NCBI GenBank assembly: GCA_964016885.1
Contig: OZ024740.1
Coordinates: 357,492,001-357,556,000 of the forward strand
Direction of reading: 5' to 3'
Source: Eledone cirrhosa
Lineage: Eukaryota
DNA: 64,000 bases
Below are positions 3,313-64,000 of this stretch, piece by piece; positions within the stretch are counted from its first letter, which is position 1; each line of letters begins with the position of its first letter. The notes under the pieces are model-generated. The model saw nothing but the letters and a program-made list of their open reading frames with translations. It did not search any database and had not been told where the DNA came from. The position numbers and the translations under genes are program-made.

Positions 3313-6025
3313 TTTAGAACGAGTATTTTTTTATTGTGAGTTAATTGAGAGAGTTAATAGATGATATACTGTATGTATTGTTGAGAATGTATGTATTGTT
3401 TGTATTGTATCACAGAGAGTAACCGAAGCAGTCCAAGAAAGGAGTGCGGGATTCCGTCCAGAATATATTTTTTTACCCCGTTTGTAAAATAAGTTGGATT
3501 ACTTTGAATAAATAATGAATGAATATTACATAATTTATGTGCTAAATTTAGTGGCTGTTGATTAAATATATTTTATAGCTTATTTAAAGACCTTTAAAAT
3601 TCACTTCTTTAAAATTTTCAAATGTCAACACTTCCGGTTAGCGGCCGTTATATTATAACACTTATAAAAATATCGCATATATTTCCGTCGCTAATTTTCT
3701 CCTAATGCAGTTTATATATAATATCGTCTTTTTTTAAATGTATCATGGATTACGTTACTGATTACAGAAGACAGTGTCAATTTCTGTGTATATTGTCAAT
3801 TACGATTTTATTTGATGTATCATATCTACATTTGTGTAGATATGATACATTTTATGTATTATACATATATTTGTGTATAATATCAATATACACACTACAC
3901 ATGCTAGCAGAAAACCACCCGAGGGTGGTTTTTCTGCTAGTATCATCATAAGGCATTACAACGTTTTTTTTATATATAATTTATTTGCAAATATGAGAAG
4001 TTGAGTTAGCTGTGTTGACATGTCATAAGAAATGAAATAAAACAAATTAAGATGCTGTAAAAGAATACGCAGACCTATGGCTAAAGTTAGAAGCCATGGC
4101 CGCGGTAATCGTTCGATAGTTATATTTCGGAAAGTTTGTTGAGCAAAATCAAGAGATGTTTACCTTCTGGTGAGGAGATTCAAAGAGGGAGATTTTCGAA
4201 GAGAAGCGGGAATTTTTCCCTTTGGGCGTAAGTTGAAATACATCTCCCTACGATGGTAGCGATTGGCTGAACTGAGCCAAACAACGTACGGAGAATGTAT
4301 TCAAGAGCCATCAGAATGTAGGTCACTACAATACCCCCTATTTAGCCTAGAAGGCGATAAATAAGATTGAATTATCAGGAAAAACGTTGAAAGAGAGCAC
4401 ATCAATGAGAAAATTGAACAAACGAATGCATGCAAGATGAAAAATGAGGCGCTAAGGGCCTTGTTGAGCCGCTGTGTCAAATGACTAGCTGTTTTGCTAT
4501 TTATGTGTGACGACCCCGGGTCTAACAGAAAACGGATAAAGTCTGACATCGGCAAAGTTGCTGTTCTTGCATTAAATGTTAGCTGTTATGGCAAGTGTTG
4601 TACCAGAGCTGTGGATGAAGCTGTTATGGTAGTTTACCAGTGATGTATAACTCTTATGGTAAGTGTTATACCAGAGCTGTGTAGATGGAGCTGTTATGGT
4701 AAATGATGTAGCATAGCTGGCAAGAAGATGATGGGTAGGCGAGAAATTGTCGGCCTCCCAGATGAATTGCCAGAAGTGGTAGGCAGCCAGGAAAAAATGG
4801 GTAAAGTTGCTTTGAAAAGAAAAAGCAAGTTGAATTTGTAGGTGGGCAGTAGTTGAAGCTGTAATTCTGGCGATTCGTCGGAGAAATGGTGGAAATGCTA
4901 ACAGGTCCAGTTCCATTTGTTGTTTTCCCAGTGGATCGGGTAAAGTAACAAGATTGAGGTTGTTATGTTACAGAACGACGATCGAAGTCTAAGATTGAAG
5001 ACAAATCTAGAGTCACCAATATTATGAACGCCACGTCTGACACCATAGTGGTGAGAAGATTGTGAGGAAGCAGTGAATCTTCAGTAAATAATTGATGGTC
5101 AGAAGGTGTGGTGGTTGCGTCGGTAAGGTTATAAAGCTGCCACGTAGTTATTCCCTGTTGTGGTTAGTGGTTAACCATGTGTTGCTGCTGCTGCTGATGC
5201 TGATGCTGCTGCTGATGCTGCTGCTGCTGATGCTGATGCTGATGCTGCTGCTGATGCTGATTTTGTTGATAGTTGATGGTAGCCATGTTGAAAAAATAAT
5301 TTTCCTCGTGCTGTGACTTTGAAAATACAGCTAAATTTTTTCTCAAATATTGTTTGCTCAGGCGGGTTCATTGAAGTTAAACCATGTGTTGTGCTGTTAT
5401 CAACAAAAAGGTTTTTACAAGGTGCTGATACAATACAAGAAAGCTTGCGTGTTGTTCTTTAAAAACACTACTTCTATTTTTTTTTTTAAGGAACATTTAG
5501 TTCCCACGGCTGGGTCACCAATTTAGAAATAGGTATTTTTGTAGTTAGTTATATGGGTTGTTATGAATGTTAATATTTGTTTGTGTATTGTATCACAGAG
5601 AGTAACCGAAGCAGTCCAAGGGAATGTTGTGGCAAATATCATCATAAGGCATTACGACGTTTTTTTATATATAATTTATTTACAAATATGAGAAGTTGAG
5701 TTAGCTGTGTTGACATGTCATAAGAAATGAAATAAAACAAATTAAGATGCTGTAAAAGAATACGCAGACCTATGGCTAAAGTTAGAAGCCACGGCCGCGG
5801 TAATTGTTCGATAGTTATATTTCGGAAAGTTTGTTGAGCAAAATCAAGAGATGTTTACCTTCTGGTGAGGAGATTCAAGGAGGGAGATTTTCGAAGAGAA
5901 GCGGGAATTTTTCCCTTTGGGCGGAAGTTGAAATACATCTCCCTACGATGGTAGCGATTGGCTGAACTGAGCCAAACAACGTACGGAGAATGTATTCAAG
6001 AGCCATCAGAATGTAGGTCACTACA
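3313..6025 (-). mobile_element. Non-autonomous LTR element (two LTRs, ~1.2 kb internal region)
   Basis: Near-identical direct repeats at 3942-4330 and 5637-6025 begin TGTAGTGACC on the minus strand. PBS TGGTGACCCAG at 5510-5520, PPT-like AGGGGG near 4334-4339, imperfect TSD CCCT/CCAT. The left LTR carries about 490 bp of extra sequence. Confidence 0.75.
5182..5261. repeat. CTG/CTGATG microsatellite (poly-Q/H on the minus strand)
   Basis: Seen directly; lies inside the internal region of the LTR element. Confidence 0.9.
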
Positions 6026-32621: not shown

Positions 32622-35503
32622 TTATATAGATGTTGGCCAAATTATAATGGCTGTGTCCGATTCTATCTCTAGGCTATCCTGGTGTCTGCTCAGCCTGGGT
32701 TGTTCCCTATGGCTTGAGGGGAGTTCACAACCTAGGGTGTTGTTACTGCCCATATAGCTTGAAGGGAGGTCTGGCCGAGAGGTGTTTTCATGTTCTGTAG
32801 AAGTCCCTATAGCTTGAGGGGAGTTCACATCTTGTGTTGCTACTGTCCATATATCTTGAGAAAGGTCCCGGCTCTAAGGTGTCTGCATGTCCCGAAGAAG
32901 TCGGTTCTGAGGTTTATCAGGCCGCTTCCACCTCTTAGTATCTCGAGGGTCTCGTTTAGGCATAGTTTGCATATGCAAGATCCCCCTTTATCGGGTGGTA
33001 CTTTCCTGATTATGTACCAGGCCAGAGAGTATGGGGTCCTGTCCAGCTTAAGCTTCCAGATCAGGTCGGAGAGAGCTGTGCTTTTCCTTTTGGCCTCCTT
33101 CTTGAATGAATGGCGATGGTTGTACCAGCGGTCTTTAAAGCTCGTTGATGTGGATCCTATGTAGAGGTGTTCGGAGTCGGGGGGGGGGGGGGGGGGGGTA
33201 ACCCTACAACCGTATACTAGGTTCTTCTTGAGGCATTACCAAGGGGGCATGATTTGGGGTTTCTGCAGTTGCAGAGGGTGGTCGGCCTCTGCGTGCCTAG
33301 ATTAGTATTCCCGTTATGTGTTACATGTTGGTCTTCCCCCAGGCTCGGTGGGGGGTCCTCAGGTCTGTTTGGGTTTCTTGGGTGGGCTCTGGGTCCCCCC
33401 TTCCCTCCTTGCACATGGTTCTGCTGAGTGTTTGTATTGCCATCTTCTGGTTGTGTGTGGTTTTTAAGCCTACTTCTGTTGATGCTAGCTATGTGTTGGG
33501 CCAAATTTCTCGTGGTGGAATACGAGAGCTTCACAGTGTGTCTGTTAAAGATCCTGTGGTATCTGTGGTCCCTCGGGAAGCATTTGTCAAGTGCTCCAAA
33601 GAATAATCGGGCCAAGCTTTTCTTTAGGGACGCTGAGTAGGGTGGGTTGTACCACGTGATTTTTCGGTGTCTCCTCCTATATGTGTGGGTCGGGGGCGTC
33701 GTGATTTGTTGGAGATTTGTTGGGTTGCTGGTGGTTTCCGCACTGTTGCTTCCCCTTTGGGCTCTATGCTTTTTGTTATCTTCGCGGCCCGAATTTGTGG
33801 GGTGGTCGTTGTCCATCGTGGAGTGGTGCCCCCCCCTACGTGTCCTGCGATTGGGGTCGTCTGTCCTGGGGTGGTTAGCGTCACGCCTGAGACTGCTACT
33901 CATATTGTGCTCCATCTCGTGGTCAAGCGCACTAGTCCCCACCGCCCGTGTGGTGGTGTCGGGCACATGGTGCCTATTTGATTCTGCTCTGCCTGTATTG
34001 TTAGGGTTCGCCCCCCCCCCCCCGGGAAACGCGGTTGTGGGTGTCTGTTGGGCTATCCCCATCCCGGCTTTTCGGACTATATGTTATATTTTGGCCATGT
34101 GCCGCCTTCTTTAGAGCTGCGTTGTAATATTCCGCGTGGTTATTGAATATTTCCTTACTTGCGGACAGGCTGGAGATCCTGTCGGAGACACTCTTCACCA
34201 CTGCCTTGGTTATGGATCTAGGGTAGTTTGATTTGGCGTTAACATATACGAGTTTCTCGTTGGGCTTGTGGTAGGGGTAGTATTGCTCGGTGTTCAGGTT
34301 TAGGGTGGTGTCTAGGAAGTTAACTACCTTCCTATTTGGGTCTATTTCTATGCTGAGCCCTTGGTTCTTAAAGAAATGGCGAATACGCCTCCTCATACCC
34401 TCCAACATATTGGTGCTGTGGTCATATACTGTGAATAGAGCATCGTCACGATATAATCCGCCGCCCAGGCAGGAGATTTCATCTTTTATCTGCTTCAGCA
34501 GGTAGAGCCCAACCAGGTCCGTTACCTGCGCTGAGTCGCTGGAGCCCATCGTGATGTCAAAGTTATTTGGCCAATCACTCCTGGTCCAAAGGTCTCCATC
34601 GAAGCGGATTAAGGTCTTTCTTGCGGCGTGGATGATGCTCACCTCCTCTCGGGTTAGGTCCGTATTGGACATCGCTAAAAATAGGGCCTTATTAAGTACT
34701 ATAGGTGAGATTGAGGAGTAGTAGCTTGCGATGTCCAGTTGTATAAAGCTGGTCCTACTTTTCTCATGCAGTATTTTAAACCATTCTATTACTTCTCCCG
34801 TGCATGACCATTGCTGTAATTTAGTTTTCTTCCGAAGCTTGGGCAAAATCCTATCCAGTATTCTTTTACTGACGATCCCTAGGTCAGATCTGGAGGGGGA
34901 TATTAGTCTGACAGGGAGGTCGGACTCAAAGTTTGGCTTGTGGTCTTTAAGGGTAATCCGCGGCTCCCTTGGTTGGTATGGGGCCGTCCTGTCCTCTATG
35001 CCGATTCTGGATATAATCCTGTAAGCTGTGGCATTGATCTCATCCAGGGTAAATCCAGGTGTTTTTTGTAGCATTTCCTCAGTTCCCTGAGGATTATCTT
35101 ATTGTACAGTTCAGTGTTCATGTTGTAGAGGTTGTTTGTTTTGTCAGCATGGACAAGTATTCTAGTTGTCCCTTTAAGTACTGTAATCCGGTTTCTCAGG
35201 TGTCTGAGGTACTCCTGACTTCTGGTTGGGTTTCCGGAGAATTTGAGGTTGGATATGATGTTAATCATCTCGTTTTCAAACTCCTCCATTAGTCTGTTGT
35301 GGGGGGGGATTCCTCCTTGATCTAAAAAGGTACTCCATGTTTTGTGTGTTGGTAATGTTCTGCGTTCCTCTTTCGAAGTGGAACACCTTCCATCTCATCC
35401 TACGGACGAGGGAGTCCGTACTCTTGATGAGATCACTGGTGTATTCTCGTTTATCAGGTAGGGGGATGTCCTTCAGTGACGCTAAGGTTGCCAGTTTATC
35501 CAT
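32622..35503 (-). pseudogene. PLE RT + GIY-YIG ORF broken by several frameshifts, some in homopolymers
   Basis: Motifs RRMRWK; VHADKTNNLY; ITLKDHKPNF; FDITMGS; GLYRDD; ITWYNPPYS; CNCRNPKSCPL; LVY..LYIGST..FKDRWYNH..CKLCLNE..CRH. Confidence 0.9.
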
Positions 35504-41289: not shown

Positions 41290-42310
41290 GGACAGTGTGT
41301 TGTATATTAGATATAGAGAGGGGAGAGATTGATGTTTATTGCTACAGAAAGAAGAATTTGAAGAGAGTTCCGTATAGTAGATATACAGAGGGACAGAGTT
41401 TGGTGTTAATTGATATAGAGAGGGGGATTGGAAGAGAGTTCCGTGTAGCAGATATAGAAAGGGGGAGAGTTTGGTAGTGATGGATAGAGTGAGAGGGAAT
41501 GGGAGAGCCTGTTGTATGGTAGATATAAAGAGGGGCAGAGATTTATGTTTATTTTTATAGAGAGGAATTTGAAGAGAGGTCCATGTACTAGATATACAGA
41601 GGGTGAGAGTTTGTCAGACTTGCCCAGTTTTTATTCCCCCCAACCCCCACTCGCTTATTAAATTTTGATAATCTATCCCTGACTAAATTTTATTGTAAGT
41701 GATTCATATTGATACAGCAGCTGGAGAATCTAATAATTGTTTCTACTTTTGGCACAAGGCCAGCAATTATCCCAGTGTATTACTGGTACTTTATTTTATC
41801 GACCCCGTAAGGATGAAAGGCAAAGTTAACCTAATAATAATTTTATTTTACATTAAAAAAGCATTATATATGACAAAAGAAGAACATTACAAGAAATCCC
41901 CTAGTTATGAACGTACCCTATACAATTACTGACTTCCCTTCACTTATTGTTACCACACCTCTTATTATTTGGGACCCGAAAGTGCCACAAAACTCTCCTC
42001 CTCTCTATGTCTCACACAAAACTCTCCTTTAATCCCCCTCTCTGTATCTACTCAAACCAAACGCTACCCCTGTCTATATCTACCACGACACCGCCTCTCT
42101 TATCCCACTCTCTATATCTAAGAATAATACACTCTCTCACTCTCTATAGATATCTACACTTATCTCTCCCAATCCCTCTCTGGATATCTATCACCCCTAA
42201 ACTTTCACCCTCACTATATCTACTATACGGCACTCTCCCATTATCCTTCTCTGTATATCTACAACCACCAAATCCCCCCCCCCTCTCTATATCTACCACA
42301 CTGTACTCTT
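41290..42310. repeat. Inverted pair of degenerate minisatellite arrays
   Basis: GATATAGAGAGGGG-type units at 41290-41610 and their complement at 41985-42310. Confidence 0.65.
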
Positions 42311-50680: not shown

Positions 50681-51189
50681 TCTTAATAGGCATTTGAACT
50701 GTCAACAGGCTGCGGTTCGCACACACATCCCTGCTAACCATTATCACAACAACGAACCTCTTTACTACTACTACACACACACATATTTGTTTTGAAAGAC
50801 TTATTTTTCAGTGACTTCTCAATCAGCCAACACAAACCTACATTTGGCGCAAAATCAATTTTTAACATTCACATGACCTCTACCGACCAATCAAAATTGT
50901 TTTGACCACAAGAATTTTTGCAACACGAATTGGCGCAAAACTTATTTTAATACCGCTGGAGCCACTTTTTTAACATAAAAACAGGTAGAATGTCCAAAAC
51001 TAATCAGATTAGAGCAAACATCACGGACGCTCTATCTCAAAATTATTTTTGAAAAGCATTAGAAATGCGCAACCGGTAAAACTTAAAACGAAAACTGAAT
51101 ACTAACCAATACTATTACTAATTCTCTCTTATTCCTAATTAAACTATTTTTCACTGTGAACAATTTGTCAGCATTTTCTTTTCCGTTTA

Positions 51190-51195
<6 letters not shown>
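50590..51195 (+). mobile_element. Solo 3'/pseudo-LTR copy of the Neptune element
   Basis: Colinear with 24850-25458. Confidence 0.9.
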
Positions 51196-51255
<60 letters not shown>

Positions 51256-51282
51256 TATATATATATATATACATATACACAC

Positions 51283-51335
<53 letters not shown>

Positions 51336-51370
51336 CTTATACATATATATATATGTATATATATATATAT

Positions 51371-52382
51371 TTCATCATCTACATTAATGACATTACTGAC
51401 ATCATCAAGCACAGTAACATCAGAATCTTCGCAGATGATTCCAAGCTCCAAAGGGTCATCAATGAGGTGGGTGACCGGACTTGCCTTCAGTCAGACCTAC
51501 TGGCTGTTCTCCAATGGGCAGAAATAAATAATATGCTGTTGAATGAGGATAAATTTGAATTAAGCCACTTTGGAAAAAAGGATGCCCTGAAACTACCTTA
51601 CTCTCTTCCTTCCGGTGAAACTCTAGTGGCATCCAATAACATCAGAGACCTGGGAGTAATTGTGGACAACAACATAAGCTGGGCCACTCATATAAACAGC
51701 AAAGTTGATATAGCCCGCAGAATGTGTTCCTGGATTCTCAGAACTTTCCAATCGAGAGATATCCACACTGTTATCCTTCTCTTCTCCACTTTTGCCCGAC
51801 CCCACCTTGAATACTATTGTCCACTGTGGTCACCCCACACGAAACAGAGTATCATGAAAGTTGAAGCACCCCAAAGGTCAATTACCAAAAAGATAGATGG
51901 CATGACAGGCCTTGACTATTGGGGTCGATTAGAAAAGCTCAAACTTTATTCTCTCCAACGTCGCTGTGAGCGCTACATTATCTGTATGATGTGGAAAATA
52001 TTCCATCAGCTTTGCCCAAATGATGTTGGCATCACCTTTAGTGTACACCCAAGGCTTGGGCCCCCTGATATCCGCCCACAACAAAAATCTCACTCGCATC
52101 ACGTAACCACAATACGGCACAATTATTTCACCTCAATTGGCCCTGCACTCTTTAACATTACACCAAAACACATCAAAGCAGAGACAGACCCCATCAAGTT
52201 CAAGAAGTCTTTGAATAAATTCCTTCAAGAAACCCCGGATATGCCTCCGTAAACAATAACTCTCTGCTCGAGTGGGCCATGGTGCCCAAACACTGATCTG
52301 TAAGACTTCACCAGGTGGTGCTATTAAGTTAGACATGGCCTGGGCCATTACTGGCCGAAACCTATCAAAGTTATCAAAGTTA
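51371..52382 (+). mobile_element. CR1-group LINE, 5'-truncated RT
   Basis: [38 protein letters not shown]; ORF open to 52252; tail repeat TATCAAAGT. Confidence 0.9.
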
Positions 52383-56297: not shown

Positions 56298-58613
56298 ATC
56301 TTAATAATGATATAATAATTATTTTTCGTAAACCTCTGTAAGTCCTCCATTAATTCAAACACAGTTGATATTATTAGAAATATGGTAACAAAAGGGATGT
56401 AGGGATATATCCTTTTACTGGTCGCGCAGAACATTTTTCAGTCAGTCGAGTAAAACAACTGTACCTGCTTAACGAATGAGATTTTACCTGATCACTCGAC
56501 TTGCTTAAAATGGTAGATTAAATGACACCTTGCCTTGATAGGAAAGAATAATGCACGTTGGAAAAAATATAGATGGTCACGACTGGAATGTCTTTCATCA
56601 TAGATCCATTTGGTCATCACTAACCTGGGACTAATCAACATAAATCTCTTAATACACACACTCTTTTGATTTGTAAGAGTAAAATATAAGTGAAACGAGG
56701 AAGTTTATACATCGTGCAATGGTACGTATTTAAGTGGTGTTAATGGAGTGTATTGGTTGTCAAACGAGAATCGAAACTTCGCAAATTCGATTCTAGATTC
56801 CAAGCCAATTTCATTTCTTTTGCGCCCCTAATAACCCTGGGGAAAGACGTTAACATCACAGATTCCCGTTTAACCCTTACGCTTCGCATCACATACCAGT
56901 GATATTGGGAAACTGCGAGAACTGGCTTTACGGTTTATACTTTGGTGCCTTTTAAGTTTAATTCCCGACGTGGTTTGCTGTTTGCAAACAATTCGGAATA
57001 TTAAAGATGTACTGTTCAATGCAAAGATAACTGTTTTATCAGGAGAAGTTGTCTAAATTAATTATAGAACTTCTACATGGGCGTTCCACCTGATAGAAAT
57101 AGCAGTGAAATCTCCTCTCAGATCTTGTATAATGTGGTACTAGGCTTCTTCCCTGTAAATAGGAAAAAAACAGAATGGTCACTTTAGAATATTTTTGTTC
57201 AAAGATCTGCTTGATCAAGATTAAACTGAGGCTAAAGAACAACAACTACGGCAACCTCACACAGGGTAAGGAAACCTCTAATCCAGATACCAATTTTAAT
57301 CTGCCTCCTGACGTATAAATAAAGAAAACGGTTTATGCTTTAAGATCGAGATAGCAATTTATTTTAAGTGGCATACCTGTTTTTTTTTTTAAGTTAAAAG
57401 TAAAGAATATTTAACACTTGCTGGAGTCCTAGGGGCGCCTTTCTGATGCACGGTACGTCTTGGGTATTTCAAACCTGGCGGAACCCATCCCTATCTCGGT
57501 TTCTTCCAGCGAAAGAAAGACAGGAGAAGAACCAACGTTGGTGCTAGACTGGTACTTTATTTATAGAACTCGAAAGGATGAAAGACAAAGTTAAACTCGG
57601 CAGAATATAAAATTAGAGGACTGTGTTCCGGAACAAATATCACGGCATTTTAATCCAATGCTCTAACGACACAAACGTCGCCCTAATGACGCCCTAACGC
57701 CGCTTTAACGAGGCCTAAAAGCCACCTTACATACCTATTAATTTGTAAAATTAACGATCCATTATTTTTTCAGTATATATGCATTTCTACAGGTATTTAT
57801 GTAATTGCAATTCTAGTACTAAAACAATTATCCGACCCCTGATTAATGACACCTTCAGTGATTCCTTCGGTGGTTCTTTAATACGATTGTCTCGGAGAGA
57901 ACAGATGTGATGGCACCAGTTGTGAAGCTATATTCTTACAAGATTAGATACCATGTCACACCATAAGCACGTAAATCCTGATGGAGATGTAGGGACACCA
58001 TGGTTACATATGACGTGAACTGGGTATTTAAACGGGGTGGAGCCCATCCCTCTCCAGGTCAAAACGGCTGATTTTATCCAGAGAAATAGAGAGAGGGCGC
58101 GCGTGAGAAGGAGAGCACGCGAAAAAGAAATATAGAGGAAGAGTCGACCGCAGTATTGAACTGGTATAATATTTATCTACCTCAAAATAAGGAAAGACAA
58201 AGCTGACTTCGGTAGGATTTGAATACAGAAAGCAGAGATTCAGAACAAATATCACAAAGCATTCGATCCGACACACAATTCTGCCACGTCGCTTCCTTCA
58301 AGATCAGATAGAATTCGATACTGCCATTGTTGTGAACCTTACTTGCAGCAGCTGTTGCATGACACTACTATGCGATGTGTCTGAGTCAATAACATGCTAA
58401 CATCGTTGATAGTATGATATAATCCATCGTTTGTTTAAAGACACATTTGTGCTCTATGTACTGTTGGAAAGCCCCAAGCAGTTGAACAGATAGAATTTCT
58501 GTTTTCGTTGTTGTTCTTTAACACCCAAGTTAATTTTGATCAACCGGATTTATCCGCAAAAGCGTTCTAGCTGTGACTACCTCTTTGCTTTGTTTTATTT
58601 GTTTGTTTGTATC

Positions 58614-59523
58614 TGTAGCGGTTGTCTCCCTTGTTTTGATTAGGATCTAGACGGGAAGTGGAGCCCTTTCTGCAACTTCCGGTCAGAGCCCTATAAAACT
58701 AACAACTTTAACCACTCTTTCTCTCATTGCCTTTTCGGCACCAGGTCAAGAGCCTCACATTTGGCTCTGCCATTCATTTGGCCAACAGGCGCCTGGCCTT
58801 AGCCAGGCGTCCTCTGCCAGCCGCGTTTGCCTGGCAATCAAAACGGTAACTACTAACTTTGCTTCATTCTAACATCTATTCCTTTGACATGTCAAAAATA
58901 CTATCTACCATTGTTAATTAAATATTATCTACACAAACAATGTATTCCTTGTTACATTCATACAACCCAGTATTCTCGCTATATTGGTGACCCCGACGTG
59001 ATACGAACACGCAGCCGTTCGTCGCTATATTGGTAACCCTAACGTGATACGAACACGCAGCCGTTCATCGCTATAAGTGGTCACCCCAAAAAAAGAAAAA
59101 AATAGCACATCTGGTTTCGTGTGAGTAACATTACGAATACACAGTAAATTTATCGACAAACTATGAAAATACTCAGTAAAAGAAACACACGCACACACGC
59201 ACATGTGGAATTCGCACAGACAGACTTTTTCTCTCACGCATCAACTAACTGTCGCATTTCACCAATATATATATATATGTTTCTCGTTTCTTACAACGAA
59301 CACTTTCAAAACAAAAAAAAAAAACATTTCACGATATATATACATGTTTCTCGTTTCTTACAACGAACTCTTTCAAAACAAAAACAAAAAAAAAAGAAAT
59401 TTGATATTCTTTAAAAAACATTTCAACAGGAACATTTATTTTCGATGAACCATTGCCTTTTTGTTCATCGTTTTCTTCATCGTTCAAGTTTTTTTTTTTT
59501 CCAAAAGTTCACATCTCGCTATA
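58614..59523 (+). mobile_element. LTR element: one LTR, tandem PBS array, leader, and a 10-bp LTR terminus
   Basis: LTR TGTAGCG..CGCTATA (58614-58983); perfect 18-nt tRNA-Trp PBS at 58985-59002; terminus TCTCGCTATA at 59514-59523; TSD TATC. Confidence 0.8.
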
Positions 59524-60046
59524 TATCCTTTTCGGGCATTTTTGACAGAGTAGCCTTTTTCCATATATCTAAAACAGCATTTTCTAATGTCTCTTTTCAG
59601 TTTTTAAAGCAGTAAAGTTCCCTTGCACAAGCATTCTGATCGCAAATCCTGTCAAATGGTTTTTTCTACCAATTGTGCTAGACTACTTTCTCGTTAACAC
59701 ATAACCAAAGCCAGTGCCAAATATGACTAAAAGCAATGCCCCCAAAAAACGAAAGAACTGAGTTGACACGATTAGAATGTTTTTGATCATTAGCTGACTT
59801 GGGGCAGCGGTCTTCTGTTAATATACTTTTACGATATTAATGTGTTACTGGACTCGGCAGGTATTGTCATCTCTTTGAATGAGGTAAACTTCTTTTGAAC
59901 GAACTGAAAACTGTTTGAGCATTCTTCAGTAATTATTTAAGCAAAACGTCAACTTTTAGAACAGGATGGAACACTCCTCGTGGGCATACTAAATTTAAAA
60001 TCATCTGTTCAGGAAGTTTATTTTTAATTCACACGAAAAGAAAAAA

Positions 60047-60325
60047 GCTTTTTGCATCCCATAAAACTGAGGTCACCATCTTCCCCGCAGATGGAACGAC
60101 CTTGGTCTTCTTTGGAGCAGGTGAGGAGGGGTGTTTCACTGCATGAATTGTCTCTTTATCTCTGGCTCAAAGTGATGAACCCAAGATGAGTCTTGGGTTA
60201 GGAAACGTTAAAAAAAAAACAGTAGGGTCTGCCTCAAACAATGTAAAATTTTCCCTTGATATGATCAGCCTGGTGCGCTTTTGATCAGGTGTCGGAAAAC
60301 GTAGCACCCACTGAGCAGAAGCTAA
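60047..60325 (-). pseudogene. mariner transposase fragment
   Basis: SAQWVLRFPTPDQKRTRL (WVPxxL-like)..RFLTQDSSWVHHFEPEIKRQFMQ..PAPKKTKVVPSAGKMVTSVLWDAK. Confidence 0.8.
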
Positions 60326-61626
60326 TGAAGCAATTACTTTATGGTAAATTAGTTCTTGGTTTACATCTCCAATACAAACCAAACAAGAGATATCGTAATG
60401 TGAAAAGGTAAACTTCAGCCTTTGGACATTAACACAGTGAATCAGGAATATGTTGTACTAAATAGAAGTAAATTGGGAACAAATTGCACTAAAATGGAAT
60501 GAATTTCTGGTCGGTAACCAGGAAAATAACTAGCAATTTGAGAAAAATCATATAACCCATCATATACTAGCGTTCGAAAAAAGCAAAATGTTTAATTTCA
60601 ATATAGCAGAGGGAACACAGAAGCGATTCCAGCAATATTATCTATGGTCGAAATAATCTTTTAAAAGTCGAGCTTGACAACCATGAGAAATCATATATCA
60701 AGAAAACAGCATATATATATATATATATATATATAGGGAAAGCGAGAGAGAGAGATCTATCTTTACATAGGTAAAATACACAGGTTTTTTTTTGGGGGGG
60801 GGGGGGGGGTAAGCATTTTTTTCAAACACAATAATTGTATTAGTATCGCCAACCAAACAATTTTGCTTCTCTTTTCATTATTTAGATTTTTTTTTTCTTT
60901 GTTTGCTATGCTATGAGTCGTTTGTGGCTTGGTGTTGCCAAGGCGACATTTCTAGCAACAGGCGTCAGCTCCACGCTGTGTCACCCGGCAGACTGCTCTA
61001 ATAAAATAAAATAGAACAAGCTATATCGACGTAATTTCACAAATGTCACTTAACCATACGACCTATATTTTTTTCTTCATAAATTTTCCATTATATTTTA
61101 TAAATTAACTGGTTTGGTGTGGTGTATAAAATATCAATTTAGTTAAAATAATAGCCTTTTCACATGGCTTACATATTTATCTAATAAAAATATTAATCAT
61201 ACAGAAATGCATATATATGCATGTATCTATATCTATATATCTATATATCTATATATCTATCTACTTTAGAAGGAGAATCAGAATGGAGAGAGAGGCACTG
61301 CACCCCAGTAAATTTACTGAAAGGTGGGTGAATGTAGCAAAAATCGCCCGAGTGATTGGGCCTTCTCTCTATATATAAACCTGTAGGTTGAAGAAGAAAG
61401 CAAAAGGAAGAAAGGAGCACTTGCTCAACCCGCTCCTGGAGTTGAGGATTGTTCTATCGACGGGGTATTAAACCCATTTGTAACGCCTCCCCCCTATTGG
61501 AGATTTCGATTGTTAAATTTGTTTGTTGAAAATATATATTTTTTACACGATTGTATGTAAAATCCCCGGCATATGTCCTGTATTGTCCCCTTTTCTTGTG
61601 CGCCCTTGTGGCAAATAAGAAATATA

Positions 61627-61710
<84 letters not shown>

Positions 61711-62129
61711 AAAAAGTATGACCCCGACGGCAGAGCTCAAGCCGTTTCGACGGCTATTTCTGGACTAAATTAGAATTTTTTGCCTGGTGAATAAATAGCC
61801 GAACTTGTCAAGGGGGTACTTCCTTATATGGGAAGATTGTAGTTATCAAGAGGATTGGTTAAAATTTGTTGTAAACACAAATAAGTCTATCATGGCATTT
61901 GGTGGGAGGTAGGGGTGGCTGAACTTGCCTGTAGAACAATAGGGGAGTGAGTGGAGCGGTCAGGCGTTGAAAGTGATATGTATACAGCAGAATCTAAGGA
62001 TATATATATGTATGTGTGTATGTATCTAAGGATATATATATATGTATATGTGTATGAATCTAAGGATATATATATATGTATGTGTTTATGTATGTATGTA
62101 TATCCAATGATGTTGACTTGTTCTTTTTG

Positions 62130-62400
62130 GTAAATATCATCTTGGTTAAGAGAGTGGGACTGGGTTTGTGCAGTGCCTTTGCTCACTATAAAAGCTCACG
62201 GCACAGACATTGTTTATATCTGGAGATCTCTCTGCACTTGTCGTCACATGGTACCAAGGGCCCAGCACTATGTGTCAATAATTGTCACAAGTGTAGTGTT
62301 TGTACCAGAGTTTTCAAGTCGCTAGCTGGACTAAAAAGCCACACTCGTTCAGCGCATCGGTAGGGGTTCTCCTACATGAAAACGAGTTGGCAGCCACCAT
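62130..62400 (+). mobile_element. RTE-like LINE 3' end with a C2H2 finger
   Basis: HKCSVCTRVFKSLAGLKSHTRSAHR*, then a short UTR and a (TA)n tail. Confidence 0.55.
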
Positions 62401-64000
62401 ATATATATAGAGAGAGGGGGAGGTGGCATATATATCATTTTATAATTGTAATCGATTGTAATCGAAAAGTGAATTTACAATCTAGTAAAGTTTATTCATT
62501 TGTCGATAGCTGTCTTTCTAATGATTGTTTAGTGCCTGAACGAGCAAATGATGTGGAATTCCGTGGAGCAAATGTGTAAATCACCGACTTAATGCATACA
62601 TGCATGCACCCACGTGTACTCACACATACACACGCACATACACACGCACGCATGCACCACACACACACACAGAATTGGAATGAACAACCGTAGGTTTTCA
62701 ATATGGAGTATTTCCAATTGATCGATCAACTGATTTGTTTAGTTGTTATTATCAAATATCAACCAAGATATAAAAAAAAAAAAATTCCATATGCGATGAA
62801 CATAACATGTTCATAAATTGTAGCGCATATACAAATAGATGTGTTTTGGTAGTTCGGGGAGAAAAATATAATTATTGGGGGAGCCATGGCCCCTCTATTC
62901 TCCTCCCAGGTCCACTGTACCTGAAAAGGCCTGCAGCCACATGATGCGCCGGGTTTCGGTGCATGCCATTAACATCGTAGCCAAGTCAATAATATTTAAC
63001 AAAAACAAATGTAGCGTGATGACAGCTGTTGGGGTCGTAAATAAAAGAGTTGATAGGTGCAGTGCACAGCAGGCTCACCAGGACGGGCACACACCAAGTG
63101 GATATCCCGCCAGAATAACTGGAAAGATAATGTGACAAAATGTATTTGTAATATTGAAGAGGTGTGGCGTGCGACTAAAGCTGTAGGATTAGCTAATTAA
63201 TGACAACTGAACAAAGAAACTATCGTGGTATATATTGTGGTAAATTAAACCAGGTAGGTTTAAGTGCGATGTGCTTCCATCTCTGACTAATCTTAATTTT
63301 TGCGGCTGAAGTGATACTGCTTAATGTCATCAGTGCGGAGGTCATGCATTGTTGAATCAGCAATGCCAGGCTTTGACTATCCTTGATTATGCAGCACTAA
63401 AACAACGATGCAGCCGCATCAACAGAATGGGATTCAACACCAAATTGTTTTTCACAAGGAAAACTAGAAAGGACAACGCAAGAGTGTAAACAAAGGTATA
63501 TATTTGAATAATACTAATGATCGGAGGGTGCATGTGGATCTGAAGAGAGAGCTCGTGTTCCCAAGCCGAGTTGCAATTACAAAGTGCCCCTATAGCAGCT
63601 CTTATTATTGCGTGTTGATGCTGGGATGAGATGGTGGTGTGTTGTGGTGTTGATTCGATTGTTGTGTGTACTCACTTGTGGATTGCTCAATTGTGTGGTC
63701 ACTGTTGTGTAGAATATAGGCGAAAGAAGATTGGTGAGCCTGATAGAGCGTGACCAGAGAATACGGGCGTGTAAATAAGTGTCCATGATGATAATGAAGC
63801 CTTAGGCAAATGATTTACTATATATCAACCACAATGTTACTAATTTATTATATATATAACTTTTGTCGAAGTTATACGACAATACATGAAGAACAAATAA
63901 CCACTGTTGAATTGTATGATGTTGAATCAGGTATGATTTGTATGTGTGTTTGTTTGCAAAAGTATTATTAGAAATGTATTTATAACGGAATACTCCTATG

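Follow-up and report, generated by a model that had tools for sequence, protein, structure and literature searches.

In retroviruses, read-through of the modified base m1A58 by reverse transcriptase (RT) is a known error, but one that leads to a dead end. Adenosine 58 is near-universal in tRNAs and m1A58 acts as the RT stop for plus-strand synthesis, according to the available part of PMC8599865. In defective HIV-1 proviruses, tRNA-Lys3 read-through inserts of 7–54 nt are explained by aberrant second-strand transfer, and 5 of 44 were changed at position 58 (available text of PMC12657518). Like the array described here, these inserts combine an LTR end, a primer-binding site (PBS) and further primer complement. 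Each of them, however, belongs to an isolated defective provirus and sits at a deletion junction, whereas in the family described here synthesis appears to have jumped back to the LTR end, and the product is inherited, high-copy and variable in unit number.

The Culex element cqgypsy_1, of the Osvaldo lineage, shares with the present locus CCA-bearing tRNA copies beside the 5′ LTR and an LTR end that is directly duplicated (over 26 nt in Culex). It differs in that it holds two whole, different tRNAs, was detected as a single copy, and is interpreted by its authors as an integrase-type insertion; the accessible text mentions neither an error at position 58 nor variation in unit number (PMC3286476). 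Members of the CsRn1 clade (CsRn1, PwRn1 and AgCR) have a tRNA-Trp PBS and a 4-bp target-site duplication (TSD), as does the present element. The account of the clade in the available sections of PMC2582038 makes no mention of an extended or tandem PBS, and the copy studied here has no coding sequence for comparison. In mouse ETn/MusD, perfect and two-mismatch PBS coexist, as in the present family, and such coexistence in mouse endogenous retroviruses is speculatively ascribed to a 50:50 inheritance of the primer; in contrast to our locus, the PBS in the available part of that report is a single one of 18 nt, with no read-through part and no tandem units (PMC7472051). Two other papers, PMC1635307, whose two PBS sit at opposite genome ends, and PMC12471100, have no bearing on tandem read-through units as far as their available text extends. 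The ingredients have been reported, but no tandem read-through PBS units fixed or varying in a high-copy LTR family were found in the literature covered, which mostly did not extend to subscription and older papers. What appears to be new here is a read-through unit, error included, that seems to have been fixed and amplified in an animal germline.

The window, i.e., the whole stretch of 64,000 nt that was analysed, is animal DNA rich in microsatellites and SINEs. In the explanation that we favour, the segment 58614–59523 is a 910-bp internally deleted copy, with a 4-bp TSD, of a high-copy, tRNA-Trp-primed Ty3/Gypsy LTR family (Table 1). The LTR starts with TG and ends with TA, not CA. Both LTR borders were marked by loose ends in public reads, 156 before 58614 and 206 behind 58983, the latter showing that 3′ or solo LTRs exist elsewhere in the family. 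No second copy of the 370-bp LTR was present in the window and no pair of full LTRs with a PPT was identified, the 3′ LTR of this copy being reduced to its end. The arrangement of the TSD and the LTR end would be expected by chance with a probability of about 2 × 10−5 in 59088–64000. The internal region showed no gag or protease similarity, and no LTR similarity above shuffles. As the copy has no coding sequence, its clade assignment rests on the PBS, the TSD, the termini and the neighbouring elements; both the tRNA-Trp PBS and the 4-bp TSD of the CsRn1 clade are present, and the family probably belongs to this clade. A local tandem duplication of about 70 bp (59255–59391, 90% identical) lies within the internal region. 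Near the element, at about 59900–60420 on the minus strand, there is a decayed transposase, which we take to be mariner-like (PF01359 at 60032–60166, E 0.0045, below the cut-off).

Table 1. Features of the LTR element, its array and the neighbouring Trp-type elements (window coordinates).
Feature	Position	Strand	Observation
5′ TSD, TATC	58610–58613	+	Repeated at 59524–59527, right behind the 10-nt LTR-end remnant
LTR of 370 bp, TGTAGCG...CGCTATA, termini inversely repeated except for one mismatch	58614–58983	+	Depth step and loose ends at both borders
Unit 1 PBS, perfect 18-nt tRNA-Trp	58985–59002	+	Same as the PBS in 9/9 viral-collection matches and in L012–L015
A opposite tRNA A58 (T expected)	59003	+	T at 4/4 outgroup loci that are not tRNA genes
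Unit 1 read-through part, tRNA positions 57–45	59004–59016	+	Complementarity to tRNA-Trp
Linker, repeated LTR end and spacer	59017–59030	+	9-nt match to the LTR end
Unit 2, 32-nt tRNA copy with three PBS changes, A at position 19 (59049), endpoint as in unit 1	59031–59062	+	
Linker (A form), repeated LTR end and 2-nt spacer	59063–59077	+	A form as in 23/24 X10 reads at 59021
Short degenerate PBS (10 nt) and A-run; probably the original PBS	59078–59102	+	Likeness to two other Trp-type elements in the window
Non-coding internal region	59103–59513	+	High family depth to 59250, the limit of the stretch compared with reads
3′ LTR remnant, last 10 nt of the LTR	59514–59523	+	10-mer found in the window only here and at 58974
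3′ TSD, TATC	59524–59527	+	Same 4 nt as before the LTR
Trp-type LTR element, TGTAGCG terminus at its start as in the LTR above, short degenerate PBS and A-run near 1240, frameshifted DUF7041 gag piece	206–1726	−	
LTR element whose two LTRs share 98% identity over 390 bp; PBS at 5520 of Trp type, degenerate	about 3941–6025	−	

Analysis with TRF showed a tandem repeat at 58976–59089 with a period of 46, 2.5 copies and 88% matches, in agreement with the initial annotation, which had described two 46-bp units and a partial third. The full units span 58977–59022 and 59023–59068, and in each of them an LTR end and a spacer are followed by a 32-nt complement of the tRNA-Trp 3′ end and by a 6-nt linker; the unit formula proposed at first had omitted the 1-nt spacer and the linker. 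The two units differ at four sites. Three lie within the 18-nt PBS (58989/59035, 58994/59040 and 58995/59041) and correspond to the three changes originally ascribed to unit 2, to which a fourth has to be added: within the linker, 59021 is G and 59067 is A. Common to both units are the read-through endpoint (tRNA position 45), the A at PBS position 19, and the linker save for one CpG transition. The fold of the units was no stronger than that of shuffles (z 0.06, −1.28 and −1.02), and a functional hairpin is not claimed.

The third unit (59069–59087) consists of an LTR end and a short PBS, without a read-through part. It had been regarded as a truncated, decayed unit; it is probably the original PBS, since the same form, a short PBS with an A-run, is present in two neighbouring elements. 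Both of these are Trp-type elements on the minus strand of the window, with a short degenerate PBS that is followed by an A-run either immediately or after some 20 nt. The gag piece in the first (DUF7041, E 3.8 × 10−14) resembles the gag of the CHCC-bearing outgroup locus L013, and the second has a low-complexity internal part and a palindrome that cuts its 3′ LTR.

The 32-nt extended PBS of outgroup locus L014 had one match in the window, at 58985–59016, with two mismatches, while 0 of 100 shuffles matched. The complement of the tRNA spans positions 76–45, from the CCA past position 58, and lies directly behind the LTR. The mismatches are at PBS position 19 (59003) and position 30. Position 19 lies opposite the T-loop A58 in the ARAGORN cloverleaf of a tRNA that shares the last 27 nt, and an A is present there in both units (59003 and 59049). 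Position 30 is probably an isoform difference, because a trematode small RNA in the available part of PMC3621695, which we read as a piece of tRNA-Trp, has the letter of the window there. The complementarity of about 32 nt that had been proposed, with a lone unit 1 mismatch opposite A58, was in this form upheld. The chance of the lone mismatch falling on position 19 is 1/14 to 1/32. Judged from the sequence, the 32-nt stretch is supported as a copy of a mature, CCA-bearing tRNA-Trp that was read past position 58, and we infer that the A at position 19 is a misincorporation opposite m1A58.

The abundance of the family was assessed in 4 of the 12 listed public sequencing runs, the small-share runs X6–X9 being left out. 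Run X1 may be the source sample of the window itself, because its flank contig is identical to the window. The depth in X1 rose from 7.8 on the flank to over 20,000 at 58614, and the LTR and the internal part were present at depths of thousands to tens of thousands; contig depths in the reads are sums, not copy numbers. At the junction between units 1 and 2 (59021), the X1 depth was 102, versus 6846 at 58989 and 14,169 at 59041 (0.7–1.5%). In run X10, six reads joined 59029 to 59084 through letters of the third unit, skipping unit 2, and further skips were observed in two reads from 59029 to 59088 and in two from 59020 to 59084. As the junction is rare and reads skip a unit, one full unit is the rule in the family and two-unit copies are a minority; two further X10 reads, running from the LTR end into the third unit, suggest copies with no full unit. 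No three-unit form was present among the read-table entries listed. An array invariant in all copies, named in the initial annotation as evidence against its proposal, was thus not observed.

At PBS positions 5 and 10, the changes of unit 2 are widespread in the family. Directly behind the LTR, the letters of unit 2 at these positions made up 32% and 39% of the X1 depth and were observed in 27/50 and 24/43 X10 reads, and the main X4 contig behind the LTR carries them throughout (521/521). The LTR end was joined straight to unit 2 in contigs of X1 and X4, and the X4 read tables point to a seemingly single-unit lineage (depth 64.7) with the PBS changes of unit 2 behind the LTR. At 59021 in the linker, 23 of 24 X10 reads had A, where unit 1 of the window has G; the X1 junction depth with G was about 79, as a summed depth roughly ten times that of the flank. 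Neither 59003 nor 59049 was among the 40 variant positions listed (73 others exist), which suggests that A is the majority letter at PBS position 19 in the family, with a minority of T, G or C being possible. In run X5, from organism B, two contigs (records 18 and 19) matched 58979–59011 and 58985–59012 and had different upstream sequence, which indicates another LTR family with an extended PBS. Position 19 in this second family is probably not T, as judged from counts, because LTR positions account for all four A-to-T places counted.

The outgroup scans used patterns that required an extension, and their six matches (four in metagenomes and two in genomes) therefore give no frequency of extended PBS. 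Two of the four metagenome matches proved to be tRNA-Arg genes of bacteria and are not counted among the outgroup loci. The four remaining loci, L012–L015, each have a single extended Trp PBS with T at position 19, ending at 37, 29, 39 and 33 nt, respectively. From this range of 29–39 nt, it can be read that extended Trp PBS recur and that the endpoint is not the same in apparently independent read-throughs. L012 and L013 have a common LTR (88% identical) but different endpoints (37 versus 29 nt), which suggests repeated read-through within one family. L013 has a DUF7041 gag with a CHCC motif (CX2HX9CX3C) and a protease. L014 and L015 have no gag and no LTR pair, and their LTR status is given by appearance alone; both are eukaryote-like contigs in bacterial MAG records, where their presence is probably due to binning contamination. 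The extended pattern had no match in viral contigs. The 18-nt Trp PBS had nine matches in the viral collection (L001–L009), none of them extended, with A at position 19 in three, C in six and T in none, and a gag search of the viral contigs showed no relative. We take the L001–L009 sequences to be like avian retroviruses. A repeat of the LTR end within 200 nt was 9 nt long in the window versus at most 6 nt at all 13 loci (L001–L009 and L012–L015).

We consider that the array probably goes back to one founding read-through that was amplified; template switching would later have added or removed units, and the proximal PBS would have stayed perfect. In the founder, plus-strand strong-stop synthesis would have passed m1A58 with incorporation of an A and gone on along the primer as far as position 45. 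Synthesis would then have resumed about 8–14 nt before the LTR end and continued through the old short PBS, leaving a founding product in which the LTR is followed by a single full unit and then by the old PBS. HIV-1 (PMC12657518) and Culex cqgypsy_1 (PMC3286476) provide precedents for such an event. The reads show that the one-unit form spread, presumably to hundreds or thousands of copies, in versions with a perfect and with a two-change PBS. Template switching between the repeated LTR-end and PBS sequences could then have altered the unit number, either by gain (from one to two) or by loss (from two to one), leaving a minority, including this copy, with two units.

An independent second capture should differ from the first in endpoint, error or landing point and should reproduce the LTR end of its own copy; none of this holds for unit 1, and template switching onto an existing unit is the most likely source of its 3′ half. 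The G at 59021, set against the A of nearly all X10 reads, speaks against simple copying; unit 1 is thus not a simple copy of unit 2 of this element, and would need a second source or an older state. For the polarity, a simpler cause that needs no new captures is known (PMC7472051): only the LTR-proximal PBS would be used, and it would be renewed by copying of the primer or maintained by selection, with drift confined to the distal units. In X10, perfect and two-change PBS are split almost evenly, which would fit such refreshing provided that the two changes are linked. In Ty1 and Ty3, according to the available parts of PMC7472051 and PMC5371799, the primer sequence is not inherited and the parental PBS is kept, so that for a Gypsy-type element refreshing is not an established process. 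As the product seems fixed and amplified here, with PBS of perfect and of degenerate form coexisting, genomes alone would allow two questions to be addressed: whether Gypsy-type elements other than those of yeast pass on the sequence of their primer, as is the case for retroviruses, and whether extended PBS can be used as fossil read-outs of tRNA modification.

A single founding event retains part of the mechanism proposed in the initial annotation. Read-through past A58 and a jump back account for the founding unit, but the shared endpoint, error and linker argue against a separate capture for each unit. Likewise, the decay described with distance from the LTR held in so far as unit 1 is primer-perfect and unit 2 carries changes; these changes are, however, family states that also occur directly behind the LTR. 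The idea of an ordered, CRISPR-like record found little support in the comparison, as units 1 and 2 share their junctions and most family copies have one full unit; units acquired independently, with different content or junctions, were not found. With CRISPR arrays, as generally known, there is in common only an apparent polarity with the newest unit next to the leader; the array has no diverse spacers, no acquisition machinery and no sign of defence, and every unit copies the same tRNA. The window array is no evidence of a CRISPR-like memory, and looks like one old reverse-transcription accident that was later duplicated.

Among the alternatives, we regard it as unlikely that every full unit was newly captured by read-through next to the LTR, with the endpoint and linker repeating through a deterministic pause and jump, e.g., by fold-back on the nascent cDNA. 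Such captures would agree with the variation in unit number (one and two, with the two X10 reads suggesting zero), with the primer-perfect PBS and CpG-intact linker of unit 1, and with the X4 single-unit lineage as a potential parent. Moreover, the linker of 6 nt equals the reverse complement of 59003–59008 exactly, error letter included, and endpoints differ within another LTR family (L012 and L013). However, the same endpoint, error and near-same linker would have had to arise twice, although 39 of 44 HIV-1 read-throughs in the available text of PMC12657518 had no change at position 58 and all four outgroup loci have T. The linker of unit 1 mismatches the LTR end of its own copy and is closer to the family linker; it resembles LTR-end variants in the public reads, which may be chimeras. 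The corresponding hairpin was not above shuffles (z 0.06), and a form with three units was lacking from the entries listed.

A wider form of this idea, in which Trp-primed CsRn1-type elements, in contrast to Ty3 of yeast, regularly copy the primer past m1A58 and inherit it, and arrays built by repeated jump-back keep a chronological record of primer identity and m1A58 status, is in our view doubtful. It would be compatible with the variation in endpoint at the four other loci, the variation in unit number, and the apparent absence of T from position 19 in the second LTR family of organism B.

There is also little reason to expect that the extension is a selected functional region of long primer pairing, or a tRNA-fragment decoy, with the A at position 19 as an ordinary or selected substitution. 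The recurrence of extended Trp PBS, with T in L012–L015 and also in the other LTR family of organism B, is consistent with a function, as is the amplification of the two-change PBS, as if the extra pairing compensated for it. Against this, the endpoints range from 29 to 39 nt, the position of the lone mismatch has the low chance given above and its change equals the one seen in HIV-1 read-throughs (PMC12657518, available text), and the duplicated LTR end would be left unexplained. A read-through origin and a later function are not mutually exclusive.

Host DNA slippage or unequal crossover after insertion of this copy is a very improbable source of the second unit. The locus does have the other local duplication at 59255–59391, and most of its 3′ LTR is gone, but a duplication after insertion would not reproduce differences between the units that were already present as family states, and the G-junction depth in X1 hints, as far as summed depths allow, at more than one such locus. 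An origin of the tRNA-like piece from a genomic tRNA gene or a tRNA-derived SINE, rather than from a primer, can be practically dismissed even with the host tRNA-Trp genes outside the comparison, as the copy begins exactly at the complement of the CCA, which eukaryotic tRNA genes lack, 1 nt behind the LTR end and in PBS orientation, and ARAGORN identified no tRNA gene in the 64,000-nt window. A search with Rfam over 57500–60500 gave two chance-level matches.

Elsewhere in the window, a 369-aa open frame is present at 51143–52252 on the plus strand, with no Pfam match at E 0.001; we presume that it resembles the end of a LINE reverse transcriptase. Tandem repeats other than microsatellites were observed at 32704–32902 and 41302–41613, with periods of 97 and 71, respectively.
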